DNA of 64,000 nucleotides from Octopus vulgaris. Taxonomy: Eukaryota. The notes beneath the pieces are model-generated. The model was not told where the DNA came from. It ran no database searches and saw only the letters and a list, made by a program, of their open reading frames with translations. The DNA lies in contig OX597826.1 of the NCBI GenBank assembly GCA_951406725.2, positions 22,940,001-23,004,000 of the forward strand, given 5' to 3'. Positions 3,769-7,164 of this stretch are shown piece by piece. Numbering within the stretch: position 1 is the first letter of the stretch; each line of letters opens with the position of its first letter. Made by a program: the position numbers and the translations under genes.

Positions 3769-4058
3769 CATATATATATACATGTGCATATACATACAAA
3801 CATACATTTGTGTGCCTGTGTGTATGTATATGTTTGTAGGTATGTATGTGCAACGAACTCAAGACATGTAAGGAAAAAACACAATATAGCATACCCGACA
3901 GCCAACCGTAGAATTCGTCGTAGTATGTACGAATGTTTATCTTTACATATCTATGAAAATGGCGGGCTTATTCGCAATGCATTTCGGTAACAATTTGCCT
4001 ATTCGGAACAAAAATTCAGTATTGGACTATTCCGGTGAAAAATATAAATTTAAAATTA

Positions 4059-4120
4059 TGCACTGAAGAGCATAGAATGCATTTTCTGCATTGATTGCGA
4101 AATCACAGGTGATATGTAAC
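4059..4120 (+). ncRNA. Type I hammerhead ribozyme, monomer 1 (stem I shortened by the inversion junction)
   Basis: TGCA CTGAAGA GCA...TGC GAAA TCAC AG GTGA TA TGTAAC. Confidence 0.8.
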
Positions 4121-4503
4121 TAAATTCTATTTTTAAATGACTTGCTTTGAAGTTTTGTATTCGGTACAATTTGTTTATTTTAGTAGTTTTGACTGCAAGA
4201 GTCCCTCCTAGCCTGCGGTACCTATGAATAATAGTACCCTCTATATAATATAAATAAATATTTTCAAAGTGGAAAAATTTACAGATTTTTTTTCTTACGA
4301 GGTTTTTCACGCTAACTACTGATAATTTCTTATAAAGATTTTATCCTTAATTTTAAATTTATATCTTTCACCGGAATAGTTCAATACTGAATTTTTGTTC
4401 CGAATAGGCAAATTGTTACCGAAATGCATTGCGAATAAGCCCGCCATTTTCATAGATATGTAAAGATAAACATTCGTACATGCTACGACGAATTCTACGG
4501 TTG

Positions 4504-6179
4504 TGACAGTCCAACGGACAGGTTGTTATTATTCGAACACGTGTGATTATTATAAGTTGCCAATTAATTTTGTTGAATTGTTGTTGTACGTTTTGTGATA
4601 CGGTTTCTTGTTATACTGTTTCTGTTCTGGCGGCCGTTGTCTGTCTGTGTTGAGACAGACAAAAGGTTATGGACCACCCCTCCCTAATGGGAGAAATGGA
4701 GGAGGAATGGATATTCGAGACCTTGTCAGAAGCATCGACCTCTGAGGACGAGCTAATCGGTGCCGTTAACAATATGGATATAAAAACCGGGAAGACGTAC
4801 GCAGGAGCAGCAAAAAGTTAGAGGAAAAGGAGATAAACCTGGAAAAGTTGCCAGGCTTTCAGGCATGCATGACGAAGGAAAGAGGTGAGGTAAAACTACT
4901 TCCACCAGAAAAACGTGGAGAATGGTTTGAGAAGAGAGTGATTAAATACCGGACATACGTAAATGATAAGAGAGTAGAAATGGTAAAAATGGAAGATATT
5001 GAGGAGGCGCTAAGGAGAGTGGAAGAAGAAATTATATTCATGGCAAGAGGTAATGAGTTCGGAACAATTATGGTGCAGTTTGAAAACAAGATTATAGTGA
5101 GGAAAATGGCAGCGAAGACAATCAAAACAGAAAAAGTAATCTTACTACCATCGTATATGAACCAAAGAACAACTAGAATAAGAGTGGAAAAGATAACCCC
5201 CCCCTCCCACATAGAGGGTGAATGGGTCGTTGCGGCGGTAATAAAAGATGTGGAAGAAGAGGTGGACATTTTGCAAGCTACCGTAAAAATTAAAGGTCGG
5301 CGAGGTAAAACGATAGAGATGAGTGTACAAGCCGAGGAGGGTACACTAGAAAGAATGGCCGACATCATAATCTTCGGGAATATAGTAATGAGAGTGTGGG
5401 TGGAGGGCAGAGCACCAAGATGTTATAAGGGTGACCTGAGGGGCCACATAAGAGCCTACTGCCCTCCCCCACGAGAAGAAACTGTAAATCAGGAAAAGGA
5501 GGAGGTGGAGCAGGAAAAAGTTGAGGAGGAAGAAACGGAGGAGGAGAAGGAAGCCCAGACGAAATGGGAGGATGTAAGGAAAAAAAGAAAAAGAAAGAAA
5601 TCGAACTATGTCGAACCCCAACCCACCCCAACACCACCCGCACCCTCTGAGCCCCAGCCTTCCCCTGCAAACAGTGATCCCACCCACTCCCCGCCTACAA
5701 GAAAACCAAAAAATAACGCAGACACAAAGTAAACAAGATCCCAAGTCCCATATGTTATGTTTTGTGAAAAGGAAGACACTGAGAATTCGAAAAGAATCTT
5801 AAATACTTTTTCATGGTATGAGAGAGAAGATGGGAGTTATACGGTGGTGCCAGGGGAACTAATGGATACAATTATGGCGTTGTGTGTAAGAGAGGGTGTA
5901 AAAGTGATTAAGGTGGAATTTTCGGATGAGAGGATAAAAGAGATAGAAAGGAAGGCTGAGAGAATGATAAGGAAAATGGGCTTTTTATTGGAGATGATAA
6001 ATGACGATAGGTTATGAAGGACAGGTAAGTGGTGCTGGCGGATGGGGCCGTCAGCATCGCTTTCATATTATCATTCTCAGAAAATTTTCATCCTACATAC
6101 TTTTAATTTGTAATGTTCTGTGTCCCCAATGTATTGTGGTGTCGCCTCTGTGTCGCCCCTAGTGGGTAATAAAGAAGTA
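4504..6179 (+). mobile_element. Non-autonomous gag/ORF1-only non-LTR retroelement
   Basis: 17-bp TSD GACGAATTCTACGGTTG (4487-4503 and 6180-6196). Gag-like ORF with Zn knuckle; no RT or endonuclease. Confidence 0.85.
4669..5732 (+). pseudogene. Gag-like ORF1 with CCHC knuckle, frameshifted near 4815
   Basis: ATG at 4669 corresponds to the ORF start at 30001 in the duplicate. Knuckle is [15 protein letters not shown] here and intact [15 protein letters not shown] in the duplicate. WEDVRKKRKRK basic motif. Confidence 0.8.
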
Positions 6180-6244
6180 GACGAATTCTACGGTTGGCTG
6201 TCGGGTATGCTATATTGTGTTTTTTCCTTACATGTCTTGAGTTC

Positions 6245-6308
6245 GTTGCACTGAAGAGCATAGAATGCAGATTCTGCATCGATTGCGAAATCACAGGTGA
6301 TATGTAAC
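6245..6308 (+). ncRNA. Type I hammerhead ribozyme, monomer 2 (canonical)
   Basis: Stem I GTTGCA/TGTAAC, CTGAAGA, stem II GCA..ATGCAG ATT CTGCAT..TGC, GAAA, stem III TCAC-AG-GTGA, AUA cleavage site. Confidence 0.9.
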
Positions 6309-6731
6309 TAAATTCTGTTTTTAAATGACTTGTTTTGAAGTTTTGCATTCGGTACAATTTGTTTATTTTAGTAGTTTTGACTGCAAGAGTCCCTCCTAGC
6401 GTGCGGTACCTATGAATAATAGTACCCTCTATATAATATAAATAAATATTTTCAAAGTGGAAAAATTTACAGATTTTTTCTCTTACGAGGTTTTTCACGC
6501 TAACTGCTGATAATTTCTTATAAAGATTTTATCCTTAATTTTAAATTTATATTTTTCACCGGAATAGTTCAATACTGAATTTTTGTTCCGAATAGGCAAA
6601 TTGTTACCGAAATGCATTGCGAATAAGCCCGCCATTTTCATAGATATGTACATTCGTACATGCTACGACGAATTCTACGGTTGGCTGTCGGGTATGCTAT
6701 ATTGTGTTTTTTCCTTACATGTCTTGAGTTC

Positions 6732-6795
6732 GTTGCACTGAAGAGGATAGAATGCATACTCTGCATTGATTGCGAAATCACAGGTGATATGTAAC
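6732..6795 (+). ncRNA. Type I hammerhead ribozyme, monomer 3 (stem II mismatch)
   Basis: Same as 6245-6308 except GCA>GGA in stem II and an altered stem II loop. Confidence 0.75.
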
Positions 6796-7164
6796 TAAAT
6801 TCTGTTTTTAAATGACTTGCTTTGAAGTTTTCCATTCGGTACAATTTGTTTATTTTAGTAGTTTTGACTGCAAGAGTCCCTCCTAGCGTGCGGTACCTAT
6901 GAATAATAGTACCCTCTATATAATATAAATAAATATTTTCAAAGTAGAAAAATTTACAGATTTTTTCTCTTACGAGGTTTTTCACGCTAACTACTGATAA
7001 TTTCTAATAAAGATTTTATCCTTAATTTTAAACACACACACACACACACACACACACACACACACACACACACACACACACACACACACACACACACACA
7101 CACACACACACACACACATATATATATATATATATATATATATATATATATATATATATATATA

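Follow-up and report, generated by a model that had tools for sequence, protein, structure and literature searches.

Near the left end of a 64,000-nucleotide stretch of Octopus vulgaris contig OX597826.1 (the window), a short array of hammerhead-bearing repeats begins with a segment that points the wrong way. The locus raises the question of what kind of element this repeat is, from which RNA it was copied, and when its first segment was inverted. The initial annotation read the interval as a retrozyme array of exactly three monomers, made by reverse transcription around a circular or concatemeric RNA with a 5′ inversion resembling twin priming. The reading that we favor, and consider reasonably probable, is that an octopus non-LTR retrozyme was inserted here long ago by a reverse transcriptase of the Penelope-like element (PLE) type, which copied uncut multiunit RNA with both host ends as primers.

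Self-comparison resolved the array into three copies of one repeat unit (Table 1). The copies measured 495, 495, and 487 nt, in agreement with the 487 to 495 nt first proposed, and the unit was as devoid of sense reading frames as had been claimed (G+C of 33%; longest ATG-started sense ORF, 45 codons). The interval 3849 to 7032 is not repeat throughout as first described, however, since more than half of it (4504 to 6179) is a nonrepeat insert that had gone unmentioned. Self-comparison and junction analysis agreed with the proposal that the inverted piece supplies what the last direct copy lacks of the unit; the piece is indeed inverted, but it spans 3853 to 4058 rather than 3849 to 4058, and the preceding GTGCA is host-like.

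Table 1. Features of the retrozyme array, its nested insert, and its duplicate (positions in the window)
Feature	Position	Strand	Evidence or remark
GTGCA	3848..3852	+	Last host-like bases; match to unit stops at 3848
Inverted 206-nt unit segment, TAATTTTAAA ... GAGTTCGT	3853..4058	-	Self-comparison, junction analysis; 10-mer at its end (4049-4058)
Unit 1, first 445 nt	4059..4503	+	Hammerhead core 4063, predicted cut after 4114
17-bp target duplication, left copy	4487..4503	+	Identical (17/17) to right copy
Nested ORF1-only non-LTR element, 1,676 bp	4504..6179	+	ORF, domain, fold, and junction evidence
17-bp target duplication, right copy	6180..6196	+	Identical (17/17) to left copy
Unit 1, rest	6197..6246	+	Self-comparison
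Unit 2, 487 nt, private 8-nt deletion	6247..6733	+	Core 6251, predicted cut after 6302
Unit 3, partial, 299 nt	6734..7032	+	Core 6738, predicted cut after 6789; terminal TAATTTTAAA at 7023-7032
(CA)n(TA)n microsatellite, right flank	7033..7164	.	Sequence inspection
Second, truncated copy of 3770-5472	29099..30804	+	Self-comparison; within larger duplication

When the insert was removed and the inverted segment was turned back between GTGCA and TGCAC, the array came to 1,487 nt (495 + 495 + 487 + 10), i.e., three units plus a 10-nt terminal repeat, TAATTTTAAA, with zero bases gained or lost and with spacings of 495, 495, and 487 nt between occurrences of TAATTTTAAA. The count of exactly three monomers is therefore right for the units but omits 10 nt, and it holds only with the 1,676-bp insert removed. 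Likewise, the claim that the units start and stop at the same point was confirmed as a register of the ends, with the 10-nt repeat closing it, but the point in question is not the ribozyme cut site (AUA). Because the array ends lie off this site, the RNA that was copied was not a linear molecule trimmed by the ribozyme; a template with ribozyme cuts at its two ends was rejected on the same ground. On the unit, the outer ends lie ~200 nt apart. The left inversion breakpoint coincides exactly with the boundary between element and host, and the arms share no microhomology at the inner junction, whose sequence is by construction the reverse complement of the predicted empty site. Junction analysis showed no classical target duplication around the whole insertion; the array flanks share none.

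The insert in unit 1 is an element in its own right. It lies between copies of a 17-bp target duplication, and contigs of public runs X8 and X13 contain the empty form of the site as joints that skip 1,693 nt; both observations show that this LINE derivative entered unit 1 after the array was in place. It contains an open frame of 320 codons (4770 to 5732) and an AATAAA (6168 to 6173) 6 nt from its end, and no reverse transcriptase or ORF2 was found in its three frames. The core of the ORF was modeled as two RRM-like domains (pLDDT, 92.7), with tandem RRM proteins as the best fold matches (E = 5 × 10−5; TM of 0.3 to 0.4). A CCHC knuckle at 5421 to 5462 is damaged in this copy and intact in the duplicate at 29099 to 30804; zf-CCHC scored weakly in that second copy (E = 0.012) and above the cutoff in 5 of 19 relatives scanned. 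At an E value of ≤0.001, the ORF had 204 relatives; ZCCHC3- and CCHC-type clusters were matched as well. The best relative was an Octopus sinensis protein (55% identity), and of the best 10 looked up, 8 carried Octopus names and 2 carried none. Metagenome scans confirmed none of 39 candidate ORF1 relatives. A homopolymer frameshift is present in each window copy (near 4811 and near 30527), and a 94-codon frame after the ORF1 stop, for which no homologue was found, is probably a broken C-terminal extension of ORF1. We conclude that the nested element carries a type I ORF1 in an ORF1-only LINE derivative of the HAL1 kind; it may also resemble Tx1-type site-specific elements, which insert repeatedly at one target. 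HAL1-type derivatives, as far as the accessible text of PMC5753468 describes them, likewise have ORF1 only, no reverse transcriptase, a long target duplication, and AATAAA near the 3′ end, but the octopus family differs in its two RRM-like domains with a single knuckle and in the head-to-tail joints of its relatives. The combination of RRM and CCHC that defines type I ORF1 (PMC4120745, in part) is shared by the nested element.

The initial annotation lacked the second copy of the left part of the locus, which holds flank, inverted head, unit 1, and part of the nested element (Table 1). The larger duplication around it also contains a foldback repeat and a SINE, and a LINE at about 2128 to 3769, presumably CR1-like, is present in the first copy only. 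After the nested insertion, the region was duplicated, the CR1-like LINE entered one copy, and the units decayed, as the copies themselves show. The two copies are identical over 656 nt of retrozyme, whereas 28 of 1,495 columns differ elsewhere (Fisher P = 4 × 10−5); gene conversion or polishing could be responsible for this identity. The window is otherwise rich in microsatellites and LINE fragments.

Each unit contains an intact core of a type I hammerhead ribozyme (CTGAAGA..GAAA..TA at 4063, 6251, and 6738); stem III has 4 bp, stem II has 29 nt and an internal loop, and the triplet is AUA. The statement that every unit carries a hammerhead thus stands for the core (three of three), but complete stems were found only at 6251 (6-bp stem I, 3-bp outer stem II, and 4-bp stem III). 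In the motif at 4063 the inversion removed GTT and cut stem I to 4 bp, and in the motif at 6738 stem II contains a mismatch (6746) found in that unit alone. A hammerhead descriptor matched the three array copies and the duplicate (29395) and nothing else in the 64-kb window; in 30 Markov-simulated 64-kb windows it had no match. Rfam gave no match at gathering level in the window, and at an E value of ≤10 on 6180 to 7032 it gave three chance-level nonhammerhead matches and no hammerhead family, a miss that the long stem II may explain. The 24-nt ribozyme pattern had no match in metagenome scans. The hammerhead fold is not the minimum free energy (MFE) fold of either the isolated motif or the whole circle. 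Stem III is near-palindromic, and pairing between two copies is predicted to be possible; a dimer mode has been described for type I motifs (PMC4209133, in part).

Folded as a circle, unit 2 reached an MFE of −114.4 kcal/mol, compared to −91.5 ± 5.8 kcal/mol for shuffled sequences (z = −4.0; 0 of 60 shuffles; 64% paired). The minus-strand circle had a z of −2.3, and five control stretches ranged from −2.0 to +2.5. Within the fold, the hairpin at 6405 to 6426 was compared with the family. In a consensus of loose contig ends from X8 (8 contigs; agreement, 0.76), two of its pairs were changed on both sides and a third on one side (read by eye); in the X1 consensus, drawn from 23 contigs (agreement, 0.70; median, 10 nt), one double change was kept and other pairs were broken. 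In addition, at 4397, 6280, and 6506 the letters found in most of the family give A-U pairs where this locus has G-U or a mismatch. The compensatory changes in the hairpin suggest that its structure may be under selection.

To place the unit in its family, contigs from 4 of 24 listed runs were compared with one permuted unit containing the nested insert; this query began at the inversion breakpoint, so that the locus's own junctions lay outside its reach. In X1, the summed contig depth, which is not a copy number, was 41,371 to 235,828 for the unit and 288 to 1,883 for the insert (4570 to 5383), a difference of about two orders of magnitude. Head-to-tail unit joints were present in X8, X13, and X1, with none listed for X2. 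The unit is therefore a member of a very abundant head-to-tail family. Among the joints listed, one X1 contig joined opposite strands (4384/6318) and possibly represents another inverted locus with different breakpoints. None of the listed runs is recorded as RNA; X13, whose RNA origin is a guess, gave unit contigs and a head-to-tail joint, although contigs do not separate a circle from a tandem transcript or DNA. Among the rows listed, no pileup of contig ends at one unit position was seen, a feature that contigs are ill suited to show.

Because the unit belongs to an abundant head-to-tail family, is predicted to fold as a stable circle, and shows compensatory changes in a hairpin, it is likely a new, probably octopus, non-LTR retrozyme. 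It combines a hammerhead core per unit, head-to-tail units, noncoding sequence with a G+C content below 50%, and a self-paired predicted circle. Family, fold, and motif thus support the retrozyme identity first put forward. Our literature search, which covered sources other than subscription papers, repeat libraries, and preprint supplements, found no octopus retrozymes or inverted retrozyme insertions, and the word ribozyme has no occurrence in the accessible text and supplement, as distinct from the repeat library, of a 2026 O. vulgaris repeat annotation (PMC13282606). The same source describes O. vulgaris PLEs as abundant and recently active.

The units also record their state at insertion. 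Over 299 nt, they have 5, 4, and 5 private changes, i.e., star-like divergence; three of the four private changes of unit 2 are among the listed family differences, and there the family majority agrees with the other two units. In all three copies of the corresponding segment, position 4397 is G, where most of the family has A. Given the star-like divergence and this shared minority letter, the units were near-identical when inserted. Such near-identity fits a single circle, but it is expected from a young donor array as well. The units have since decayed by ~1.6% each, and efficient production of monomers from this locus has probably ceased.

How the array was integrated can be approached through its junctions. 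The starting point of the inverted arm is the stopping point of the direct arm, and the far end of the inverted arm is in register with the right end of the array, a coincidence with a chance of 2 to 4% on a linear template. The first of these coincidences is the product expected of twin priming, in which second priming by the top-strand host end makes the inverted arm start where the direct arm stops. The junctions thus support an inversion that arose at integration by a second priming event, and this part of the proposed mechanism held up. The other part, copying around a circle, gains less from the unit count than had been claimed: unequal crossing-over adds or removes whole units, so the number three carries no extra weight and only the register of the ends is informative. 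For the same reason, "exactly three" was rejected as proof of rolling-circle copying.

In the sequence of events that we favor, members of the family would be transcribed, self-cleaved, and circularized, as known retrozymes are. A host end matching TAATTTTAAA would have annealed to an open A/U loop of the RNA and been extended into a long cDNA, the direct part of the array; the opposite host end, GTGCA, would have annealed to TGCAC and given a short cDNA, the inverted head; and the two cDNAs would have been joined head to head. The template may have been multimeric RNA in linear read-through form or in closed form. The 10-mer TAATTTTAAA falls in the loop predicted to be most open in the circle, among the most unpaired 3 to 6% of windows in all units (rank 12 of 487, 16 of 495, and 27 of 495 when the three units are folded as circles). 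A/T-rich 10-mers tend to stay unpaired in any fold. GTGCA matches, over 5 nt and in inverted orientation, the TGCAC of ribozyme stem I, a sequence that occurs once per unit, and is a candidate for the second primer end. A 10-nt match is offered by 0.23% of host positions (282 of 120,216), compared to 47% for a 5-nt inverted match, and the GTGCA/TGCAC match is for that reason weak when taken alone. If the 10-mer is host sequence that matches the RNA, the register of the inverted arm with the right end follows; a 10-nt target duplication matching the unit explains the end register on any head-to-tail template. We infer a host origin for both the 10-mer and GTGCA.

The enzymology of PLEs is compatible with such a route in several respects. 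In the accessible part of PMC11167929, a PLE protein in vitro nicked and extended both strands, started inside the RNA, used uncut RNA, and needed no ribozyme cleavage before insertion. PMC8557442 and PMC3846280 (both in part) give inverted 5′ copies and microsatellite targets as general PLE features, and the octopus array likewise has a head-to-head inverted 5′ copy adjoining the direct array in a microsatellite context. In vitro, the PLE protein also primed at RNA sites nonhomologous to the cut DNA (PMC11167929, in part), which counts against a model of priming by homology.

The form of the template is judged from the same junctions, and the likelihoods that we attach to the linear multimer, the closed circle, and a later inversion are our own judgment. 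Two primers on a linear multimer, with the cDNAs ending by chance or guided by homology, is a route that we hold tentatively as quite possible. Two primers on a closed multimeric circle, each cDNA copying through the other's primer site up to its hybrid, appears to us possible but doubtful; the host ends would then have paired over 10 nt in the open loop and over 5 nt in stem I. A circular template fits four junction coincidences neatly without being required, since either a linear multimer or a later local inversion yields the identical sequence.

The later inversion is the strongest rival to inversion at integration. In that scenario, three units would first have been inserted between copies of a 10-bp target duplication, TAATTTTAAA, with a chance match to the unit, and a separate DNA template switch would later have inverted 206 bp between GTGCA and TGCAC. 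This account predicts the sequence base for base, blunt inner junction included, and the 5-nt matches that it uses are as common as stated above. It needs two events, however, with the second one beginning precisely where element and host meet; PLE integration usually produces inverted heads (PMC8557442, in part), and the inverted head is present in both window copies. We regard it as unlikely.

Less probable still, and in our view quite improbable, is that the unit is a pseudo-LTR (pLTR) of an autonomous PLE, present here as a 5′-truncated tandem with an inverted copy and giving rise to no free monomer or circle. The tandem-plus-inverted architecture is the same as that of PLEs (PMC8557442 and PMC3846280, in part), retrozymes are reported to be related to pLTRs, and 8 of 9 dimers tested failed to cleave (10.64898/2026.07.22.740005, in part). 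Against this, no ORF with reverse transcriptase plus GIY-YIG adjoins the array at this locus, whole units are joined head to tail in three runs, the whole unit is predicted to fold as a stable circle, and the motif is canonical, with a 4-bp stem III and a 6-bp stem I, rather than of the minimal PLE type (PMC4209133, in part). Moreover, the locus has outer ends ~200 nt apart in place of the fixed 3′ end with an optional 30- to 40-nt tail of PLEs. A PLE fragment does lie nearby, and its presence in the window speaks for the favored reading: positions 1 to 490 resemble the GIY-YIG end of a PLE (E = 4 × 10−4, below Pfam's cutoff), and a minimal hammerhead is present at 984 to 1028, within the fragment at 1 to 1028. 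Comparison of 1 to 1195 with the unit gave no significant similarity (best E value, 0.031, on the opposite strand). This fragment was rejected as a demonstrated partner for lack of sequence similarity to the unit.

Very improbable is the idea that the ORF1 element was cargo or partner and that the composite moved as one from a donor locus on a linear transcript. PLE repeats can mobilize unrelated sequence in trans (PMC3846280, in part), and the insert occupies the same site in both window copies, but a 17-bp duplication of its own brackets the insert inside the unit, X8 and X13 contain the site without it, neither the inverted head nor unit 2 carries it at the corresponding position, and the window copies share flanks and the order of neighboring repeats, as in a segmental duplication. 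Finally, an assembly artifact behind the inversion or the in-register ends, for which the identity of the copies over 656 nt of repeat could speak if polishing caused it, is scarcely credible, since the inverted piece has two private substitutions that neither direct copy shares, each unit has changes of its own, and the junction is found in both window copies, only one of which has the LINE.

Inversion at integration invites comparison with L1 twin priming, in which the second host end primes internally by microhomology and the inverted arm takes up where the direct arm leaves off. The octopus array differs from it in having no poly(A) tail and no classical target duplication and in an inverted arm that is in register with the 3′ end.

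For animal retrozymes, movement through circular RNA with the help of PLEs has been proposed, argued in the accessible sources from co-occurrence, phylogeny, and RNA abundance rather than from insertion junctions. If the closed-circle reading is true, the locus would be junction-level evidence for a circular RNA template and for a PLE enzyme mobilizing retrozymes. One decayed locus decides neither hypothesis; nevertheless, an octopus family with PLE-type inverted heads makes both proposals testable by the positions of ends across loci. The family otherwise resembles metazoan non-LTR retrozymes. Those of coral, mussel, and axolotl (PMC7229834, in part) are likewise noncoding tandem units with a canonical type I hammerhead, a G+C content below 50%, no LTR, PBS, or PPT, and a self-paired predicted circle; they likewise occur as dimers to trimers and coexist with PLEs (PMC7229834 and 10.64898/2026.07.22.740005, in part), and the features of the octopus unit match the accessible part of PMC7761336 too. 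At 487 to 495 nt, the unit is longer than the 170 to 400 nt of invertebrate retrozymes (PMC7229834, in part) but within the 51 to 972 bp of a vertebrate survey (10.64898/2026.07.22.740005, in part). Its stem II differs in being 29 nt long with an internal loop, and the inverted head with in-register ends is undescribed in the accessible portions of the metazoan retrozyme literature compared.

PLE insertions provide a close parallel to the arrangement. Those described in the accessible parts of PMC8557442, PMC3846280, and PMC11167929 likewise consist of a partial tandem and a head-to-head inverted copy in microsatellite surroundings. In contrast to them, the octopus array has no ORF and does not share their fixed end and tail; here, each arm ends where the other begins, and both outer ends show apparent microhomology between host and RNA.

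Contigs from two public sequencing runs (X1 and X2), compared with the retrozyme unit and its insert, contained relatives of the ORF1-only element, a 1,676-bp LINE-like insert nested in retrozyme unit 1. In these relatives, the 3' end (6181) was joined back to position 4577, at depths of 51 and 240. This joint suggests that relatives of the element form head-to-tail arrays. A far more abundant family shares four short parts of the element (5388-5472, 5616-5712, 6017-6068, and 6133-6181).

If the first and second ribozymes, hammerhead motifs with predicted cuts after 4114 and 6302, both cut, a 2,188-nt RNA containing the entire ORF1-only element would be freed. 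Under this model, the RNA would be a retrozyme with coding cargo; however, stem I is short in the first motif and the element carries its own AATAAA, both of which count against this explanation. Two 156-nt arms (98% complementarity; 289-nt spacing), one in the inverted head of the retrozyme array and the other in unit 1, would form a long hairpin in a read-through transcript.

The duplicate copies (3770-5472 and 29099-30804) were identical over about 719 bp and ~1.9% different in the remainder, which may reflect either gene conversion or assembly polishing. Other repeats and frames in the window are listed below.

Coordinates of repeats, hammerhead, and frames within the window
Feature	Position	Second copy or arm	Description
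Penelope-like element	1-1028		3' end
Hammerhead	984-1028		minimal type I
Small foldback element	1263-1637	28208-28571	between (TA)n runs; second copy lacks the centre
Identical tract	3823-4541	29155-29873	
Hairpin arms	3903-4058	4348-4503	
Tandem array	33960-41432		about four units, 1.8-1.9 kb each; 96-97% mutual identity; 102-nt internal dimer in every unit
Long inverted repeat	52373-54365	55482-57440	arms about 2 kb, 99% alike; 1.1 kb between the arms; may be a foldback DNA element
Open frame	60889-62181		430 codons; Myb/SANT-like match (E 2e-5); weak CCCH zinc-finger matches

Sequence comparison within the window found no significant similarity between the Penelope-like element fragment and the retrozyme unit. 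The GIY-YIG frame of the fragment is broken and is preceded by a CxxxxCxxC motif; the hammerhead lies 3' of this frame. Stem III of this hammerhead is a palindrome (GTAC), and core position 4 is occupied by C.
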